32,000 nt of DNA from an uncultured Chloroflexia bacterium (GCA_963824175.1 CAWGOD010000005.1:138909-170908); one strand, 5' to 3'. Positions 6,496 to 15,349 are shown, numbered from the stretch's first letter. Program-made: numbers and translations. Notes: generated by a model not told the origin, from the sequence alone.

Positions 6496-6783
6496 TTAGG
6501 CAGCTTTTTCCAGAACCGCTAAACGTGCCATCAGGCGGCTCTTTCTGCGGGAAGCATTATTTTTATGAATGACGCCTTTGGCAGCAGCTTTATCCAGAGC
6601 CTGAATGGCTTCTGCGGTTGCAACTTTTGCGTTCTCCAGATTGCCTTCTTCCATAGCTAGAAAGGCTTTTCTGATCAGGGTCCGGGACTTGCTCTTGTAA
6701 GTTCGGTTCTGCAAGCGGCGCTTTTCATTCTGTCTTTCTCGTTTTTGTGATGATTTTAAGCCCAAGGGTATTCCTCCAATCAT
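6496..6783 (-). CDS. rpsT: 30S ribosomal protein S20
   Basis: Basic 95-aa ORF, ..KSSQKRERQNEKRRLQNRTYKSKSRTLIRK...KGVIHKNNASRRKSRLMARL. The true start may be a few codons inside the listed ATG. Confidence 0.9.
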   Translation of the reverse strand: MIGGIPLGLKSSQKRERQNEKRRLQNRTYKSKSRTLIRKAFLAMEEGNLENAKVATAEAIQALDKAAAKGVIHKNNASRRKSRLMARLAVLEKAA

Positions 6784-6901
6784 TTCTTACTGTTTCGAAG
6801 GGACATTTTAAGGTAAGGAAGGCAATTTGTCCACCCCATTGCTGATTCTGGAAAATGGATTTCTCCATATTCTTGGTAGTAATATACCACCTACCCTTCC
6901 C

Positions 6902-6930
6902 TTCAAGAAAATTCTTTAACATGTTATGAT
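6902..6930 (+). promoter_or_regulatory. candidate promoter of rnpB
   Basis: TTCAAG (6902-6907), 17-nt spacer, TATGAT (6925-6930), ending 4-6 nt before the first P1 nucleotide of the RNase P RNA. Confidence 0.35.
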
Positions 6931-6934
6931 GAAG

Positions 6935-7345
6935 TCCCCAGGTCAGCCAGGTGGTTGCGCCCCCTTCGGGGGGTGAGGAAAGTCCGCACTCCATCGAGCG
7001 TGATGCCGGATAACGTCCGGGGCGGAGAGATCTGCCGGATCGGGCCACAGAAACAAACCGCTCCTCCGGGAGTAAGGGTGAAATGGTGGTGTAAGAGACC
7101 ACCGGTGCAGGCAGTAATGCCTGCAGCCGGGCAACCCCCATCAGGAGCAAGGCCAAACAGGGATGAACTCCTTCGGGAGGGGAGGCTGCTCGTCTCCTTT
7201 GAATTCCAGGTAGGCTGCACCGAGGCGCACTGAGAAGTGCGCCCCAGACAGATGATCACCTCAGTGTATTAAAGGGAGGAAGCCCCCCGGGGTGTAAACC
7301 AGAAATACACCAGACAGAATGCGGCTTATAAGCTGGCCTGGGGAT
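6935..7345 (+). ncRNA. rnpB: RNase P RNA, bacterial type A
   Basis: Universal P4 strands GAGGAAAGTCCG (about 6976) and ACAGAATGCGGCTTATAAG (about 7314). Also GGGTGAAATGGTGGTGTAAGAGACCACC, GCAAGGCCAAAC and CAGACAGATGATCACC. The P1 pairing is CCCCAGGTCAGC / GCTGGCCTGGGG. The three ORFs listed over this region are spurious. Confidence 0.92.
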
Positions 7346-7655: not shown

Positions 7656-9420
7656 ATGAGTAATCTATCCAAATACTCAAATCATTTTTTCAATGAACTG
7701 GAAGTATATGAGGACATATCCAGGGGGCACAGTTATAAAGCCTATCTCCAGCAGGCAGTTCAGGAATTTTTGGAGCACGAAACCAAAGAAACCGCTTTTG
7801 CTGTATACAGAGCATTTTTTGACAGTTATCGGATCATTCTGGAGGGCAAGACCAATCCGTTCATCGATCTATTGGACGTACTTCTCAGCTATGAAGAGAG
7901 AGCTTCAACCCTGATTGATAAACAGAGGGATCATTACGTCCATTCCGTCAATGTTTTCATCCTCGGCCTTTGTGTTTATACACAAAACCCAAATTTTCGG
8001 GCTGCTTTTGATGCCGTAAATCTGGAGAAGACAATCTACCCATATTCATATGATACGAAGGGTGAAGAATTCTTCTATCGCTGGGGAATTGCTTCTCTCT
8101 TCCATGACGTCGGATATCCAGTGGAGATCATTGGAAAACAAATCAACAAATTTATAAGTTATGCGACAGAGGTTGATAGCGATATCAAGGTGAAATCTCA
8201 CCTTGAATTTGATAATTTCGAGGAGTTGAACAAAATCGCTGAAGTCCTTCCCAAGCAGGAATTTATCAAATCCTACTACGATAAATACCCGAGTTGTGTT
8301 TATGTGGATCTGCTGAAACCTAATGATCTACTGGCACATAAACTTCATCTTACATTAGGTGTTGATCTGACGGTAATTAAAACAGCCCTGGATAGTTTCA
8401 CTGAAATTATGGCAAAAAGTGGATTTATCGACCACGGATATTACAGTGCCATCATCGTCCTTAGATGGTATGGTTTCCTCATCCAAAGCTGCAACTATAA
8501 ACCGGAATACTTCTTTTTTTCTGTTTTGGATAGTGCCAGCGCGATATTACTCCACAACTATTATAAAAATGTGCTTTTGAAACCTCCCTTCAGCAAAGGC
8601 CCACTTTCACCACACGAGCATCCGATTGCTTATCTTCTTATTCTCTGCGATGAACTGCAGGAGTGGAATCGGACAGCCTACGGCATTATGGATAAGAAGC
8701 GCAATTTGGCAGAGGAAGCATCTGTATTGATCACTGATAAACGACTGGAAATGAGCTATATAGATAAGGATACCCCGCTTCCAGAACAATTTGCTGCAGA
8801 TAAGGAAACCACCCTCTCTAAATTATTAGATATGGGAGTGTTATTTTCAGAAGGTTTTTCGATAAAATGTGAGACCAGAAAAGTATGGACTCCATCTTCC
8901 AACGTTATCGATCAGGATTCCGCCATCGCCCCGCGCCAATTACTTGAGAATCTAGAGAAGTTAGCTATAGCAATTCATGATCTTTACAACCAAAACCAGC
9001 TTAAACGCAATCCAGATCAACCGCTGACTTATCCGCAGTTCTCTGACCTACCTGATTCTCTGAAATATTCCAATTTAAGGCAAGCTCGCGACATTACAAA
9101 AAAACTGGGGCTCATGGGATGGGACGATCCGCCCGGAAGGAACAGGTGGCGAAATTATATCTACAATACCCGATGAAATTGTAGAAAGACTAGCAATTTT
9201 CGAGCATGAAGAATGGGTTCAAGAAAGGTTAGAATTTGGCTGGACATATGGAGAGATTAAAGACACTGAAAAGAAGATCAGCCCCTATCTCGTGCCTTAT
9301 GATGAACTCAGCGAGGAAATCAAAGACCTGGATCGCGATACGATCCGAAATATTCCTGCCCTGCTTAAAATTATCGGCATGGCGGCCTATGCGAATCCGA
9401 GAAGATACCGAACTACCTAA
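7656..9420 (+). CDS. gene A: HD-superfamily phosphohydrolase fused to tandem RyR (ryanodine-receptor) repeats; one frameshift near 9120
   Basis: ORF 7656-9176 carries the HD motifs RDHYVHSVNV, ASLFHDVGYPVE, IDHGYYSA and LILCDELQEWNR, then a first RyR-like repeat (LAIAIHDLY...LKYSNLRQARDITKKLGLMGW). The +1 frame continues TIRPEGTGGEIISTIPDEIVERLAIFEHEEWVQERLEFGWTYGEIKDTEKKISPYLVPYDELSEEIKDLDRDTIRNIPALLKIIGMAAY and stops at TAA 9418-9420. This is a canonical RyR repeat (GWTYG, P.LVPY.EL). The junction MGW/TIRP parallels AGYRIAP in gene B. Confidence 0.75.
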
Positions 9421-9518
9421 AAAACGACAAATCACCATCAGAAGTTTGCCTGAAACGTATAAGGATTGAATCAACAAGGCTTTAAAATCAATTCGCAGTG
9501 ATATCAAACCTGTGATAA

Positions 9519-11273
9519 ATGGAGAAAATAATGCACCAAAGAAGGTTTTTACGGAATCTATGGTCGGACTATAGCTGGTTCATTATCATACTCCTTGGAA
9601 CACTCGCTTTAGTTCTTGGATATATTGGTTTCTGGAAAAATAGCCTGGTCCTTGAAGAAGGACGAACCTTCCTGGATAATCTTTACCTCACATTGGGATT
9701 AATTTCTTTGAACTCTGGTGCCGTGCCCCCGCCTATAGGTTGGGAGCTGCAGTTAGCCCGGTTTTTAGTACCGGCGGTCACCGCCTATACGGCTTTCCTG
9801 GCATTTACATCGGTTTTTATTCAGCAAACTGATCGGGTCCGGCTCTGGTTCATCCAGGACCATATCATCATCTGCGGCCTGGGTCGAAAAGGATTCCGCC
9901 TGGCAAACCAGTTCCTCCAGAGTGGCACGCCTGTAGTTGTCATTGAATTAGATGAAGGAAATGATTGGATTGGAAATATCCGTTCTGCAGGTGCGATTGT
10001 AATGAACGGTGATGCTTCAGATCCCGAGCTTCTGAAAAAAGTTAAACTCAACCAGGCCAGCTGCCTGATCTCGGTCGCTGGCGATGATGGCAAAAATGCC
10101 GAGGTTGCCGTAAATGCAGAAAGGATTTCACAGACTCGAAAAGACAGTTGTCTGACCTGCATCATTCATATCTTTGATGCCCATCTGTGGCGCTTGCTGC
10201 GGGAAAAAGAAATCCAGGTCAATAAAAGTCCACGTTTCCGACTGGAAATGTTCAATATCTTTGATCGTGGAGCCCACCTTATGGTGCAGAGCAATCCACC
10301 CAGGACTGATCAAGGCCCCGACCGGCCGCCCCATTTGCTGGTTGTAGGATTAGGAAAGATGGGCCAGCAGGTAGTCCTGGAAGCTGCCCGGAGCTGGCAG
10401 TTACTGGATTCAGTTTCGGACCGGAAAATAAATTTCACGCTGATTGATATAGACGCAAAAAAGAAAATGGACGCCCTGATGATCCAGCATCCCCGTCTGG
10501 AAAAACTGGGTATATTTGACCCCCTGGATATGGATATCTCAGCGGGTGATTTTGACAGGGTAGCAGAACGATTTATAGATGACAGCCGCTGCCAGCTGGA
10601 CCAGGTTTATATCTGCCTGGATAATGAAACATTCTGTTTGCAAACCGGGCTCAGGCTCAATAATCAGCTCCGGAATTATCAGATTCCAATTGTGATGCGT
10701 ATGGTCGAAAGCGGCGGTCTGGCCTTACTGATTGGTAATAAACAGGCTGATTGGGACAGTTTTGGCAATCTGCAAATTTTTGACCTGCTGGATCAGACCT
10801 GCACAGCGGAGCTGCTCCAGCGCGGCACTCATGAAGTCCTGGCACGCAATCTACACTCGGTGTATCTGGAAAACAGCAGTAGTGGTGACGGAGATGATGC
10901 CCTGGTACCCTGGGAGGAGCTGTCGGATTATCTGAAAGAAAAAAACCGCCAGCAAGCAGATCGGATCCCACTCATGTTGACTGCCGCTGGATATCGGATC
11001 GCTCCCCTGCAAGATTGGGATGCAGAAGATCTGACCTTTGATGAAAAGGAAGAAGTATCCAAGATGGCTCGAATGGAACATGAACATTGGTGCCAGGAGA
11101 AAAAAGAGGAAGGCTGGACTTACGGGGCCGAGAAGGATTCTGTAAAAAAGACCAATCCATGCCTGGTTCCTTGGATAGAATTGCCTGAGGTTGAAAAGGA
11201 TAAAAACAAAAAATTCGTCACGGGTCTTCCGCGCTTGCTGGTGCGAGCTGGATTTCAGATCGAAGAACAATAA
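9519..11273 (+). CDS. gene B: membrane protein with channel-like N-terminus, two TrkA-N/RCK NAD-binding domains and tandem RyR repeats
   Basis: Intact 584-aa ORF; ATG 9531, preceded by GGAG, is an alternative start. It has hydrophobic helices (WFIIILLGTLALVLGYIGFW and ARFLVPAVTAYTAFLAFTSVF) and two GxGxxG Rossmann motifs (IIICGLGRKGFRLA and LLVVGLGKMGQQV). The C-terminus reads LARNLHSVYLEN...LKEKNRQQADRIPLMLTAAGYRIAP followed by MARMEHEHWCQEKKEEGWTYGAEKDSVKKTNPCLVPWIELPEVEKDKN. Confidence 0.8.
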   Translation: MEKIMHQRRFLRNLWSDYSWFIIILLGTLALVLGYIGFWKNSLVLEEGRTFLDNLYLTLGLISLNSGAVPPPIGWELQLARFLVPAVTAYTAFLAFTSVFIQQTDRVRLWFIQDHIIICGLGRKGFRLANQFLQSGTPVVVIELDEGNDWIGNIRSAGAIVMNGDASDPELLKKVKLNQASCLISVAGDDGKNAEVAVNAERISQTRKDSCLTCIIHIFDAHLWRLLREKEIQVNKSPRFRLEMFNIFDRGAHLMVQSNPPRTDQGPDRPPHLLVVGLGKMGQQVVLEAARSWQLLDSVSDRKINFTLIDIDAKKKMDALMIQHPRLEKLGIFDPLDMDISAGDFDRVAERFIDDSRCQLDQVYICLDNETFCLQTGLRLNNQLRNYQIPIVMRMVESGGLALLIGNKQADWDSFGNLQIFDLLDQTCTAELLQRGTHEVLARNLHSVYLENSSSGDGDDALVPWEELSDYLKEKNRQQADRIPLMLTAAGYRIAPLQDWDAEDLTFDEKEEVSKMARMEHEHWCQEKKEEGWTYGAEKDSVKKTNPCLVPWIELPEVEKDKNKKFVTGLPRLLVRAGFQIEEQ

Positions 11274-11369
11274 CTATAAACAAGAATATATACAAGAAAC
11301 TGAGTTCGAACAGGTTATTATGGCTGGTTAACACACTTTGGGGTTATGGTTCCCGGGAGGAAAACACTC

Positions 11370-12531
11370 ATGGCTCACGATGCTTTCATCAGCCATTCAT
11401 CTAAGGATAAAACCATTGCCGATGCTGTCTGCGGCACTTTGGAGGGAAAGAATATCCGCTGCTGGATCGCACCCAGGGATGTACCTCCGGGCACCCATTA
11501 CGGTGCTGCGCTTGATAAAGCCATTGAAAATAGTAAGATTTTCGTCCTGCTGATTTCTAAAGGTTCCAATAACTCTGACCAGGTGATCCGCGAATTGGAG
11601 ATAGCTGCCGATAATGGGATCCCTATCATCCCCATTCGCATAGAAGACATCGAACCCACGGATGCCATGCGTTATTATGTCAAATCGCTCCATTGGCTGG
11701 ACGCCCTGACACCGCCTCTGGAACGGCATCTTGAGAAAATAACTGCTTCTGTTCAAGCCTTATTATCCATTGAAGCTGATGAAACAATCTCGCCTGCAGT
11801 CGAGACTATCACCGAAACACTTCCGAAAAAACGCTCGCCATTGCCTTTATGGGCATCAATCCTAATTGGCCTGGCAGCCCTGGTAATCGTGGCTGGTGGT
11901 GCCTGGTTTTTCATTAACCAGTCAAGGTTGGAAGCAGAACCAGAATCAGCGATAGAGATGGATTGGCAGCCAGTATCTTTTATATTCCCGAATCCCCAAA
12001 TATTGGGATCTGACGGTTGACAACCAATTTACCGCGCTTGATCAGCGCGATTCCGATGTGTATGCCTGGTCTACTGAAAGTTATCAAGGCGATCTGACAG
12101 TAAACCTGGAGCTAAGAAGCTCGGTGGAGGCACTTGACCTCAGTTGGGAGGATATGCAAAAGCAGATTCCAAACCAGAATTCAGGCTGCCTGATCCTCTA
12201 TGGAGACGGCACGATGGAATCCCATGGGAGCCTGGTTTTTTGTGTAGACTGGGATGGATATTATATAGATACACATTACCGGACATACGATGATGAAATC
12301 TTGACCTTCGTCCCGCATGATAACCCTTCTGAAACAATCTATGCAGTAACGGTCGAAGTGATCGATGATATGGCCAGTATGTATGTGAATGGGGAAAAAG
12401 TGTTGTCAACCTTTTTCGATCAGGAGGAGATCAACCCCAGCGGAAGGATCGGCTTATTTAAGTCCTGGATAGAAGGGGAAATCACTTTTTCGAATATTCA
12501 GGTTAAAACGTCTTCCGGGATCGGAGATTAG
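11370..12531 (+). CDS. gene C: TIR domain - single TM helix - concanavalin/LamG-like (DUF1080-like) domain; one frameshift near 11995
   Basis: The likely start is ATG 11370, preceded by GGGAGG (the track lists 11346). TIR motifs are DAFISHSSKDK, IRCWIAPRDVPPG, KIFVLLIS and QVIRELEIA. The TM segment is LPLWASILIGLAALVIVAGGAWFFI. The frame ends at TGA 12018-12020. The +1 frame is open from about 11960 (..IPKYWDLTVDNQFTALDQRDSDVYAWSTESYQGDLTVNLELR...GRIGLFKSWIEGEITFSNIQVK) and runs into ORF 12058-12531. The switch lies in the CCCCAAA run at 11994-12000. Confidence 0.8.
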
Positions 12532-12648: not shown

Positions 12649-13539
12649 ATGGAAAATTTAAAATCCCTTCTTCAATCTGGAAAACCCATCCTGCTGGACG
12701 GCGCGATGGGCACAATGTTATTTGCTGCTGGGCTGAATTCAGGTGATTCACCTGAAGAATGGAATGTCCTCCATCCCGACAAAGTGCGGGCAATCCACCG
12801 CGCTTATATCGAAGCCGGATCGCAGATCATCCTGACCAATACATTTGGTGGATCTTCGGTTCGCCTGGAAAGCCACGGATTGGCTGATCGTGTATTTGAG
12901 CTGAATGAAGCTGCCGCAAAAAATGCCCGGGCGGAAGCTGACTCAGCCGGACGACTTGTAATTGTTGCTGGTTCAATAGGTCCTTCCGGGCAGATCTTAG
13001 CACCGCTGGGAACTTTGAGCCTTGAAGACGCTCGCCAATCCTTCGCTGATCAAGCCTCCGGTCAGGCAGCGGGTGGTGTGGATCTGTTCTGGATTGAAAC
13101 TATGAGCGATCTGGAAGAGGTCAAAGCAGCCATTGCTGGGATTCGGTCAGTCAGCGATCTGCCCATCTCGGCGACCATGTCCTTTGATACCCACGGCCAT
13201 ACCATGATGGGAATCAGCCCATCTCGGGCTGCCGAAGAACTCAGCCAGTTAGGTCTGGCTGCCCTTGGCGCCAACTGCGGAACGGGTTCAAATGAACTGA
13301 TTGAAGCCATCCGTGCCATGAAAGAGGCAGCACCTGATTTAGTCCTGATCGCCAAAGCCAACGCTGGTATACCCCAGCTTATGGAGGATGGCGAAGTAGT
13401 GTATAACGGCTCTCCGGATGTGATGGGTAAGTATGCCAAAGAAGTTTTCCAGACTGGCGCCCGGTTGATCGGTGGCTGCTGCGGAAATACGCCTGCTCAC
13501 ATTGCGGAGATGGCAAAAGCCCTGGTAGAATTTTCCTAA
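12649..13539 (+). CDS. stand-alone homocysteine S-methyltransferase-domain protein (MetH N-terminal module / BHMT-like)
   Basis: Intact 296-aa ORF: ILLDGAMGT, ILTNTFG, and the zinc-ligand cysteines in LGANCGTGS and IGGCCGNTP. Confidence 0.85.
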   Translation: MENLKSLLQSGKPILLDGAMGTMLFAAGLNSGDSPEEWNVLHPDKVRAIHRAYIEAGSQIILTNTFGGSSVRLESHGLADRVFELNEAAAKNARAEADSAGRLVIVAGSIGPSGQILAPLGTLSLEDARQSFADQASGQAAGGVDLFWIETMSDLEEVKAAIAGIRSVSDLPISATMSFDTHGHTMMGISPSRAAEELSQLGLAALGANCGTGSNELIEAIRAMKEAAPDLVLIAKANAGIPQLMEDGEVVYNGSPDVMGKYAKEVFQTGARLIGGCCGNTPAHIAEMAKALVEFS

Positions 13540-14070: not shown

Positions 14071-15349
14071 ATGAAGTTCAAACAATCAAAAGTATTTATC
14101 ATAGTGGCTGTATTGATCGCGCTGTCACTCGTGATTAGCAGCCTGCCAGGCTCCTGAGCCCGAAGCTGAACAGGTCTTCAAAGTCGGCTTCTTGGGCCCA
14201 TACAGTGGTCCCAGTGCTCAGACCGGCAAACAGTTCAAGGGCGGCGCCACAATTGCTCTAGAAGAAGTTGACTACAGGATCGGCAACTACACCATTGAAC
14301 CAGTCTGGGTTGACTCCCAGTCTGACCCCGCCAAAGCCTCCCAGGCTTATGAGCAGGCCGTGGTGCAGGACGGCATCCAGGCCGGCGCCCTCAACTGGCA
14401 CAGTTCAGTTGCTGTGGCTGTCATGGAAGTGACTGCCAAACACCAGATCCCGCACATCTTTGGTTTCGGCGCTACCGAGAAGGTGAATGAGACCTTTGCA
14501 CTCCGACCCCGAGAAATACGGCTACTGGTCCACCAAAGGCTGGCCCACCCCCGCTAAACTTGGCAACAAGTATATTGATGCCCTGGAATACTACATTGAA
14601 CAGGGTGTTTATGCTCCTGAAGCCAAAACCGTTGCTATCTACGGTGAGGACACCGACTGGGGCCGCAGCTTTGCCGCTGGCGTGATCGATCTCTTTGAAG
14701 CTGCTGGCTGGGAGATCGTCTCGGAAGAGTATTTCCCCCTCGAGCAGACCGAATACACCGCCTACCTGAACCAGGTGAAAGACTCTGGCTCCGGCAGTTC
14801 TGGCTGGCACCAGCACCTCCCCTCCCCAGATTACCTCCCTGATCAAACAGGCTGATGAAATCGGCCTGGAAAGCCTGATCATCGCTGACGGTCTGGGCTG
14901 GGTGGACTTCTGCGGCCTGACCGGCTCCTCCGCGACCGGGGTCATGGACCAGATCGCAGGCTGGTCTGGCGATGCAGGTTTTGCCTTCGCTGAAGAATTT
15001 GAATAGCGCTACAACCTCATCCCCAGCACCTCCTCCGCTGGGCTGGCCCATGACGGCACCAAGATGCTGCTGGAAATCATGCAGGCTGTTTACGATGAGA
15101 CATGGTGAGATTACCAGTGAACTCATCCAGCAGTTTGTGGAAGAGAATGTCTGGACTGGTGAATGGACCATGACTGACGGTATCGTGATGGTGGAATACA
15201 AGTACACCGAGGAAACCACACCTGATCCCGTGGTTGGCCCTGGCTTCTACACCTTCCCCGTGCTGCAGTATGAGTACGTTGACGGCAAATGCCTCGGCAA
15301 ACCAATTTATCCGGTTGAAGGTGCAGTACAGGACCTGATGGTTCCCTAA
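14071..15349 (+). pseudogene. Liv/HAAT-type ABC substrate-binding (lipo)protein, disrupted
   Basis: AAGGAGG lies 8 nt before ATG 14071. The signal peptide is MKFKQSKVFIIVAVLIALSLVISS. The body (VFKVGFLGPYSGPSAQTGKQF...DPEKYGYWSTKGWPTPAKLGNKY...IIADGLGWVDF...AGLAHDGTKMLLEIMQAV...) is spread over frames 1>2>0>1>2. That is four frameshifts, plus an in-frame TAG at 15004-15006. Confidence 0.8.

Follow-up and report, generated by a model that had tools for sequence, protein, structure and literature searches.

What do three neighboring genes do together when two of them end in the same domain and the third encodes a TIR protein? The genes, here called A, B and C, are closely spaced on the + strand and fill positions 7656-12531 of a 32,000-nucleotide (nt) window from an uncultured Chloroflexia bacterium (GCA_963824175.1, CAWGOD010000005.1:138909-170908). 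A carries an HD-like head and a tandem of RyR repeats, B a membrane part, two Rossmann-type motifs and the same RyR tail, and C a TIR domain, a transmembrane (TM) helix and a lectin-like domain. The answer that we favor, at a probability of roughly two in three, is that the locus encodes a Thoeris-like TIR system whose effectors would sense the TIR signal through RyR (Repeat12) domains. Domain content, the linkage or fusion of A with TIR genes, the TIR glutamate and the RyR pocket residues were computed here, and the binding of TIR products by RyR domains is taken from the literature. An interpretation along these lines had been put forward from the nucleotide sequence of the window alone (below, the sequence-only reading), and it now appears supported by comparative genomics and by newer literature.

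The linkage of A with TIR genes was surveyed across genomes. With one genome per species, 137 A-encoding loci were found, and the best 80 were kept with flanks of ~7 kb. They come from Anaerolineales and other Chloroflexota, Bacillota (Clostridia, Syntrophomonas, Peptococcaceae, Oscillospiraceae), Actinomycetota (Coriobacteriales), Bacteroidota (Bacteroidales), Terriglobales and others. TIR open reading frames (ORFs) were scored with hidden Markov models built iteratively from the survey loci themselves. Such an ORF was present in 45 of the 80 loci, and in 39 it lay within 300 bp of A or was fused to it; 32 of these adjacent or fused ORFs run on the same strand as A, six on the opposite strand, and one is a fusion. 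Some loci first scored as lacking a TIR ORF carry, according to Pfam, DUF4062-NACHT/STAND-WD40/TPR proteins, and we take DUF4062 to be a TIR-like domain of the Pfam STIR clan. With TIR and DUF4062 partners counted together, 57 of the 80 loci have a partner within the locus and 47 have it adjacent or fused. When only the 51 loci whose flanks reach at least 3 kb on each side are counted, 39 have a partner within the locus and 30 have it adjacent. The sequence-only reading had named co-occurrence in other genomes as one of its tests; A stands beside TIR-superfamily genes in these 47 loci, the exact order A-B-C recurs in loci L094 and L095, and the arrangement is not unique to this contig.

The partners vary in their sensor domains (LRR, WD40, NACHT or lectin) and often stand in arrays. 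An independent Pfam check of 55 of them returned TIR_2 in 40, ThsB_TIR in 29 and DUF4062 in eight, and partner proteins also carry LRR_4/LRR_5, WD40, NACHT and TPR sensor domains (Pfam). Of 88 partners, 80 carry their TIR domain at the N terminus, and two to four TIR genes are present in 12 survey loci. In the first neighborhoods inspected, TIR_2 abuts A in a 4.2-Mb genome, in a Clostridia metagenome-assembled genome (MAG) and in a fusion protein. Fusions of A with a TIR domain occur as proteins of 740-750 amino acids (P0078, P0089, P0100), and TIR-TIR-A-RyR fusions as proteins of 1036-1173 amino acids (P0418, P0427, P0439, P0450). TIR_2 was found in 7 of 65 long cluster representatives of the A N-terminal family, and RyR in 54 of the 65. 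A and one or more TIR-type genes are the only recurrent components in 33 of the 80 loci. B is present in 11 of the 80, and at least six C homologues apparently share contigs with A and/or B homologues.

Related Anaerolineales keep the block argS-rpsT-[A]-[B]-[TIR genes]-S-methyltransferase, with the TIR genes swapped. The site may hold a TIR-TM-lectin gene, one to three opposite-strand TIR-WD40 genes, an extra TIR gene encoding 463 amino acids, or a TIR-SBP_bac_5 gene. Constant A and B genes with swapped TIR genes thus match the Thoeris pattern of a constant effector and variable, multiple ThsB proteins. Across the survey loci, the RyR tail sits on differing heads, namely the HD-like domain, a two-transmembrane (2TM)-RCK part and a STAND-like NTPase. 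The last of these is a protein of 889-892 amino acids in Anaerolineales, a STAND/AAA-like NTPase with a C-terminal RyR tandem that replaces A (L009:3692-6361, L011:3680-6358, and also L010 and L012); it is followed by a soluble SLOG-like protein of 186-210 amino acids, and up to four or five TIR genes are found there.

A SLOG-like-SLATT protein is a recurrent third partner, present in 28 of the 80 loci, and 18 loci combine it with a TIR gene. It is 455-575 amino acids long (for example, L021:8910-10502, L037:8801-10528 and L061:8658-10307), with N-terminal LOG/SLOG motifs (GVTGHRDL ... GGCGTAETV), a multi-TM C terminus and a weak DUF4231/SLATT match. In 10 loci, its gene lies beside A with no TIR gene in the examined flank.

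The RyR module is the part that A and B share. Tandem RyR repeats had been read in A from the sequence, and both profile and fold comparisons agree: the Pfam RyR profile (PF02026, cut-off 27.4 bits) matches A with 61.5 bits (E 1e-16) and B with 75.5 bits. The last ~200 residues of an AlphaFold2 (AF2) model of an 82%-identical A homologue superpose on the whole animal Repeat12 tandem. Foldseek aligned ~200 columns with the solved Repeat12 structures 9ls7, 9l9b and 6uhi (PDB) at E 3e-6 to 1e-5 and a TM-score normalized to the target of 0.53-0.64; the matches include human RyR3 Repeat12 (E 3e-6) and a Bacteroides/human chimera.

According to two independent 2026 preprints, 2'cADPR, 3'cADPR and cyclic ADP-ribose (cADPR) are ligands of phage RyR domains, which bind them at nM affinity or hydrolyze them (PMC13232231; 10.64898/2026.06.04.730250). 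The bond that is cleaved by one such protein, RyDEP, is the ribose-ribose bond (PMC13232231). The key residues are H75, W78, H100 and D117 in RyDEP (PMC13232231) and H129, W132, K147, H154, K170 and D171 in RyR Tad (10.64898/2026.06.04.730250). We aligned A and B with the latter protein, gp68 of Pectobacterium phage CB1. In repeat 2, the equivalent of H129 is an invariant His in A and in B (His521), that of W132 is Trp in at least 90% of A sequences and invariant in B (Trp524), and that of K147 is Lys as the majority residue in A and Lys or Arg in 40 of 41 B sequences. K170 corresponds to Leu in A and to the invariant Lys562 in B. At D171, the counterpart of RyDEP D117, A has Asp and B has Asn563; the His, Trp and Asp of A repeat 2 vary little or not at all within the family. 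The phosphate-contacting H154 is replaced by Ser in A and by Asn in B, where 8 of the 41 sequences have His. The idea that RyR is the shared receiver, proposed earlier by analogy, has gained direct support from the binding of cADPR isomers by phage RyR domains, and the conservation of the His, Trp and Lys in A and B is consistent with it.

Phage genomes with RyR-domain proteins that are 40-55% identical to A repeat 2 number 213 (for example, MT152150.1, PQ051113.1 and NC_023579.1). Several of these proteins are misannotated, for instance as "alanyl-tRNA synthetase" or "minor head protein." Their similarity to A is consistent with exchange of the RyR module between host and phage.

The head of A would be the first effector domain. 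The motifs RDHxxHS, FHDxGYP, DHG, LLHN and LCDELQxW are invariant in relatives of 25-49% identity, and the same relatives show little or no variation at H96, H150-D151, D259-H260, H300 and D332. Their succession, H...HD...H...H...D, is the metal-site pattern of the HD superfamily. The AF2 model of the domain is mostly helical (pLDDT 79, pTM 0.85), with a beta-rich subdomain at residues ~354-407. The family is large: A has 1407 matches in a 90%-clustered collection, and a search with just its N-terminal domain reached 1111 representative clusters (E of at most 0.001). The sequence-only reading had called A an HD phosphohydrolase; the metal motifs and some subthreshold signals are all that speaks for this, and the profile searches do not confirm it. 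Pfam gave no HD match for the window's A at E values up to 1, nor for its isolated N-terminal domain at E values up to 5, and NCBIfam gave no match for that domain. Searches of PDB profiles with the full-length A family and with the N-terminal family alone returned RyR repeats or noise only. Foldseek found nothing for the N-terminal model at E 0.001 or better. Its best match was 3rf0 (E 0.037, probability 0.69, TM-score ~0.3), an HD-like exopolyphosphatase C-terminal domain. Weak, subthreshold matches to PF01966 occur in 6 of 26 relatives, the best at E 0.0037. We call the N-terminal domain HD-like on account of its motifs, and not an established HD domain. The clear Pfam HD match in the relative P0473 lies in a separate C-terminal domain (residues 1194-1269) and is therefore uninformative on this point; that protein (1366 amino acids) joins the A N-terminal domain with a canonical HD domain. 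The A N-terminal domain also occurs in stand-alone proteins of ~400 amino acids that lack the RyR tail (P0362, P0373, P0376 and ~20 others).

B has the composition expected from the sequence-only reading, a membrane protein with two GxGxxG motifs (GLGRKG and GLGKMG) and a RyR tail. Its hydrophobic helices span residues 20-38 and 83-101 with an N-in topology, and the loop between them, LDNLYLTLGLISLNSG, is at least 90% conserved across 41 B-family sequences. The first Rossmann motif falls in a TrkA_N domain; the second Rossmann-like region has no Pfam match, and its support is the GLGKMG motif. Since there is neither a Pfam ion-channel match (Ion_trans_2) nor a TVGYG K+ filter, the loop reading TLGLISLNSG instead, we describe B only as channel-like, as its pore-like 2TM layout suggests. 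We found 291 B homologues, mostly in Anaerolineales and other Chloroflexota, that share contigs with A, and B also lies beside A in two Bacteroidales MAGs.

C would supply the signal. The TIR domain, the catalytic-type Glu and the TM helix that had been read in it are all there: Glu83, within QVIRELEIA, aligns to a column that holds Glu in 71 of 85 partner TIRs. The TM helix is preceded by KKR and followed by an acidic stretch, and the positive-inside rule therefore suggests that the TIR domain is cytoplasmic and the C-terminal domain outside the cell. The lectin fold was less clear, as the match to PF06439 (3keto-disac_hyd) is below the cut-off (17-19 bits versus 26.8). C relatives carry PF00059, PF07081+PF17851 or PF06439 in place of the C-terminal domain. 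Because these are C-type lectin or concanavalin A (ConA)-like domains, they lend some support to a lectin-type input module, and a lectin-like, extracytoplasmic C-terminal domain is plausible. The lectin-like domain is confined to the Anaerolineales clade, with no occurrence among the TIR partners of the other 92 loci. The Anaerolineales TIR proteins P0242, P0249, P0266 and P0314 have interchangeable domains of an extracytoplasmic kind (C-type lectin, ConA-like DUF1349+GH43_C2 or 3keto-disac_hyd), and a TIR-SBP_bac_5 protein is encoded in L095 (1434-3752, - strand). A membrane receptor topology is not general among the partner TIRs, as those in L001-L003 have no TM helix.

These elements can be assembled into a model. 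C would be a ThsB-like sensor and signal generator whose outward, lectin-like domain serves as the variable input module. Activated TIR domains would oligomerize and turn NAD+ into a messenger derived from ADP-ribose (ADPR), most likely a cADPR isomer; elsewhere, LRR, WD40 or NACHT partners would make the ADPR-derived messenger once their sensor domain is engaged. A and B would be two effectors that read the one messenger through their C-terminal RyR tandem, an intramolecular pseudo-dimer like the animal Repeat12 with a single canonical pocket in repeat 2. Binding would switch on the metal-dependent, HD-type hydrolase domain of A. In B, ligand binding to RyR together with the RCK domains would open or remodel the 2TM pore and dissipate ion gradients. 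With A and B switched on in parallel, the stimulated cell would be expected to stop growing or to die. We infer all of the following: the making of the signal by C, its identity, its binding by A and B, the substrate of A, the ion of B and a phage trigger.

A might instead terminate the signal. Its RyR module would then break the ribose-ribose bond in the manner of RyDEP, or the messenger would be hydrolyzed by its HD-like domain, leaving B, the SLOG-SLATT protein or the TIR protein as the real effector. The pocket gives some reason to think so: repeat 2 of A has equivalents of both catalytic RyDEP residues, His75 and Asp117, and in B an invariant Asn stands where the Asp would be. Moreover, A often lies beside an effector-like membrane protein (TIR plus SLOG-SLATT in 18 of 80 loci, B in 11 of 80), and HD enzymes are generally known to degrade nucleotide messengers. 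Nevertheless, a terminating role of A is unlikely. In the 33 loci where A and TIR-type genes are the only recurrent components, as in the fusions, TIR plus A-RyR is the whole system, and no effector would be left unless the TIR depletes NAD+. Conserved pockets went with binding but not with cleavage of the signal in six of eight phage RyR homologues (PMC13232231), so the His and Asp do not predict catalysis; glycosidase activity cannot be read from the dyad because noncatalytic phage homologues have it too.

A second possibility dispenses with the messenger: the TIR proteins would deplete NAD+, and the RyR and RCK proteins would monitor the metabolic state by binding ATP, ADP, NAD(H) or linear ADPR, and would tune both ion flux and nucleotide pools accordingly. 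Such general sensing does not easily account for the tight fusions of TIR with A-RyR. The partners also have a ThsB-type architecture, with an N-terminal TIR and a variable sensor, often in multiple copies beside a constant partner, and phage RyR domains prefer cADPR isomers, which they bind with nM affinity. Metabolic sensing is thus rather improbable, even if NAD(H) and other nucleotides are well-known ligands of RCK domains, A and B do not keep the His that contacts the phosphates in the phage sponges, and animal Repeat12 binds ATP and ADP (PDB 6uhh, 9l9b).

The same wiring could also serve a purpose other than defense against phages. In the filamentous, multicellular Anaerolineales, the receptor might detect surface glycans or the state of the envelope, be it through kin, competitors or wall damage, and bring about controlled growth arrest or death. 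C, and probably its relatives too, would cross the membrane once and carry a lectin-type outer domain (ConA-like, C-type lectin or DUF1349), a TIR protein of L095 is fused to an SBP_bac_5 domain, and the locus occupies a stable chromosomal site among housekeeping genes with no clear defense-island context. Outside the Chloroflexota, in contrast, the partners are cytoplasmic TIR-LRR, TIR-WD40 and DUF4062-NACHT proteins, which are typical of anti-phage pattern recognition, and the hypervariability and varying copy number of the TIR genes are a signature of conflict systems. The RyR sponges of phages also imply that signals of this class play a part in infection. We give a dedicated non-phage receptor little credence, and support for an anti-phage role is weak.

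Several observations weigh against a Thoeris-like system with RyR effectors. The examined flank of 23 of the 80 A loci contains no TIR-like gene, at least eight of these loci being on short contigs. The window locus lies among housekeeping genes, and PADLOC gave scattered matches (mad3/6/8, IetA, DolB, PD-T4-6, MkoA) among the 140 nearest flanking proteins of the 80 loci, with no baseline comparison; being only scattered, these matches show no clear defense-island signature. No profile or fold search (Pfam, PDB, Foldseek) backs the HD assignment of A with a significant match, and B lacks the ion-channel match and the K+ filter. The phosphate-contacting His of the phage proteins (H100 in RyDEP, H154 in RyR Tad) is Ser in A and Asn in B, and the ligand could therefore differ from 2'/3'cADPR. 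An extracellular, lectin-like sensor would be unusual for a phage sensor. The case is built from sequence comparison, predicted structure and literature. Finally, three frameshifts within the locus could mean that the copy in the source genome is inactive.

The frameshifts became apparent when A and C were delineated with tblastn. The 603-residue homologue P0002 matches A in three successive frames, and P0243 matches C in two (Table 1). A and C are each a single gene, since full-length homologues exist (580-603 amino acids for A; 374-402 amino acids for C, with 79-81% identity over 98-100% of the query). The corrected A ends in RSLPETYKD, as do its closest, 603-residue homologues, and its end lies at 9469 and not at 9421. 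The gap between A and B is consequently 49-61 nt and not the ~97 nt first read; that between B and C is 72-96 nt, the start at 11370 and hence 96 nt being most likely. No terminator-like site was found on the + strand between A, B and C, in agreement with the same-strand trio seen originally.

The three 1-nt frameshifts are probably indel errors of the assembly. At least two of them occur at C-runs, ORFs elsewhere in the window are fragmented, intact homologues exist, and A is split likewise in another long contig, L094. The alternative, in which genuine frameshifts have inactivated A and C and the locus is a decaying pseudogene cluster in the source genome, draws on the presence of three +1 shifts within 4.9 kb. 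Besides the C-runs and the same split in L094, the coding sequence outside the shifts keeps 78-84% identity to intact homologues, its frames are free of internal stop codons, and many other ORFs of the window are broken too, especially at 14-32 kb; we see only a slim chance of decay. In that part of the window, ORFs are chopped into short same-strand pieces with shifting frames (for instance, 14192-14557, 14487-14855 and 14972-15349, + strand), which suggests frequent indel errors in the assembly and a need for frame correction of gene calls throughout the window. The survey and the fusion proteins rule out both a chance adjacency of A and TIR genes and a housekeeping K+ transporter beside unrelated genes.

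Table 1. Features of the A-B-C locus, in positions of the window
Feature	Position	Strand	Remarks
Gene A	7656-9469	+	tblastn of P0002; ~603 amino acids when read through two +1 frameshifts
A segment, frame 3	7656-9134	+	P0002 residues 1-493
A segment, frame 1	9115-9393	+	P0002 residues 489-579
A segment, frame 2	9398-9466	+	P0002 residues 581-603
A N-terminal effector-like domain	7656-8870	+	Conserved, ~420 amino acids; invariant motifs
A motif RDHxxHS	7926-7946	+	
A motif FHDxGYP	8100-8120	+	
A motif DHG	8427-8444	+	
A motif LLHN	8547-8564	+	
A motif LCDELQEW	8643-8666	+	
A RyR-like repeat 1	8928-9134	+	Degenerate; His kept, Trp replaced by Tyr; gp68 alignment and Repeat12 fold match
A RyR repeat 2	9160-9393	+	Canonical; His 9205-9207, Trp 9214-9216; Asp equivalent to RyDEP D117 / Tad D171
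A frameshift 1	9115-9134	+	+1; context GATCCGCCCGG
A frameshift 2	9393-9398	+	+1; true stop codon 9467-9469
Gene B	9519-11273	+	Intact, 584 amino acids; homologues start at Met 9531
B membrane part	9576-9821	+	TM1 9576-9632; loop LDNLYLTLGLISLNSG 9672-9734; TM2 9765-9821; hydropathy
B TrkA_N/RCK Rossmann domain	9864-10136	+	PF02254, E 5.5e-18, residues 116-206; GLGRKG 9876-9893 (residue 120)
B second Rossmann-like region	10347-10718	+	GLGKMG 10347-10364 (residue 277), conserved in family
B tandem RyR module	10806-11264	+	Pfam RyR, E 4e-21 (residues 508-582); two stretches
B RyR repeat 1			Degenerate
B RyR repeat 2	11040-11264	+	Invariant His521, Trp524 and Lys562; Asn563 replaces the catalytic Asp
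Gene C	11370-12531	+	tblastn of P0243; one +1 frameshift; alternative start 11346
C segment, frame 3	11370-12002	+	tblastn of P0243
C segment, frame 1	11995-12528	+	tblastn of P0243
C TIR domain	11385-11708	+	Pfam TIR_2, E 1e-21; catalytic-type Glu 11592-11594
C TM helix	11859-11915	+	Residues 172-190; hydropathy
C frameshift	11995-12002	+	+1; CCCC run
C ConA-like (DUF1080 / 3-keto-disaccharide-hydrolase-like) domain	12003-12528	+	PF06439, E 0.002-0.006, subthreshold

The trio lies directly 3' of the RNase P RNA gene, rpsT and argS. The RNase P RNA gene is complete and of bacterial class A (6939-7344, + strand; 251 bits, E 6e-81) and ends 311 nt upstream of A; ORFs listed on both strands at 6725-7259, over this gene, are spurious. 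C is followed by an intact S-methyltransferase gene of the homocysteine methyltransferase type (12649-13539, + strand). In the related genomes of L005, L007 and L094, the variable TIR site is likewise bounded by this gene together with argS and rpsT, all of them conserved there.

How does the proposed system compare with those already described? With respect to its heads, A shares with HD-superfamily phosphohydrolases (PF01966), which include HD effectors of defense systems, the invariant H...HD...H...H...D pattern on a helical domain. It differs from them in lacking a significant profile or fold match and in having the additional RDH and LCDELQxW motifs and the beta-rich subdomain. B has the layout of RCK-gated 2TM K+ channels and regulators (MthK, Kch, TrkA, KefC), two TM helices and a loop followed by a TrkA_N Rossmann domain. 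In contrast to these proteins, it has neither TVGYG nor Ion_trans_2, it has an additional Rossmann-like domain and a RyR tail, and all its NCBIfam scores are far under the cut-offs.

TIR signaling of the Thoeris kind is known; what would be new here is the receptor domain, the effector heads and the transmembrane class of TIR sensor. Thoeris types I to XI have been described, including type X with an ion channel and type XI with a HIT hydrolase, along with unverified classes (10.64898/2025.12.03.692087). As in Thoeris, a constant putative effector with a ligand-sensing domain is encoded beside a TIR protein whose sensor part varies and which is often present in multiple copies. Two effectors in one operon that respond to one signal also have a precedent in the ThsH+ThsI operons of types VII and VIII, and the SLOG-like-SLATT partner of the A loci resembles the untested "4TM SLOG" class of putative effectors (10.64898/2025.12.03.692087). 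Thoeris sensors, however, are SLOG, Macro, DUF2270, DUF6650, SLATT and TPR domains, whereas that of A and B would be RyR (PF02026), and C is a transmembrane TIR protein with a putative extracellular lectin-like domain. PADLOC has no model that matches A or B, which places neither in a described Thoeris effector family (ThsA, ThsC-ThsL), and C matches only generic TIR models, in line with the earlier view that no described system with this domain combination is known. Yirmiya et al. use none of the terms "RyR," "TrkA" and "HD domain" in their text (10.64898/2025.12.03.692087), and the searched part of their Table S1 contains no RyR and no TIR peptides of the C-like or LRR-partner kind; an equivalent among the unverified classes is possible. 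A Thoeris type X TIR sequence retrieved only plasmid members of the same TIR cluster, and the one inspected, from Vibrio pectenicida, is type II (Macro). The combination of a transmembrane TIR and an extracellular lectin-type domain, with the TM helix checked for C, has the topology of Toll-like receptors and suggests that some bacterial TIR signaling is triggered from outside the cell.

The phage proteins RyDEP (PMC13232231) and RyR Tad gp68 (10.64898/2026.06.04.730250) belong to the same Pfam domain as the tails of A and B, are 40-55% identical to A repeat 2 and share its pocket His, Trp and Lys. They are small homodimeric sponges or glycosidases that turn signaling off. In A and B, on the other hand, the module is an intramolecular tandem at the C terminus of large host proteins encoded beside TIR genes, and its role is therefore likely that of a receiver. 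The pockets differ as well, with Ser (A) or Asn (B) for the phosphate-binding His, and Asn for the catalytic Asp in B. Described Thoeris effectors read their signal with other domains, and binding of TIR products by RyR was shown in 2026 only for phage counter-defense proteins. Neither preprint mentions TIR-linked host RyR proteins (PMC13232231; 10.64898/2026.06.04.730250), and full-text literature searches for RyR with Thoeris, TIR or SLOG returned nothing else relevant. Host RyR proteins tied to TIR genes by operons and fusions in several phyla would, if our reading is true, give RyR a native receiver role, and host RyR effectors would explain the origin of the phage sponges. At least two new types of effector would follow: an RCK/2TM channel-like protein, and a family of HD-like hydrolases whose representative clusters exceed 1000.

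Animal ryanodine receptors provide the last comparison. The tandem-repeat fold, seen for A, and the nucleotide-binding pocket are those of animal Repeat12, and B further recalls the animal receptors, since its RyR domain is attached to a channel-like membrane part and its gene neighbors one for an enzyme of the cADPR-making class. Its small 2TM/RCK membrane part is unrelated to the 6TM pore of the animal receptors, and Ca2+ conduction is without evidence. The relation to A and B is one of a shared module and not of orthology. We put forward, tentatively and as a doubtful extension, that RyR/Repeat12 is an ancient receptor for TIR-made cyclic ADP-ribose, that phage sponges were captured from host effectors, and that the link between cADPR and animal RyR descends from prokaryotic wiring. 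With B encoded next to a synthase of the cADPR class, the debated direct action of cADPR on Repeat12 becomes testable in a small bacterial system, and if the domain is such an ancient receptor, the B/C pair would be a minimal model for the binding of cADPR-type ligands to Repeat12 and the gating of ion flux.

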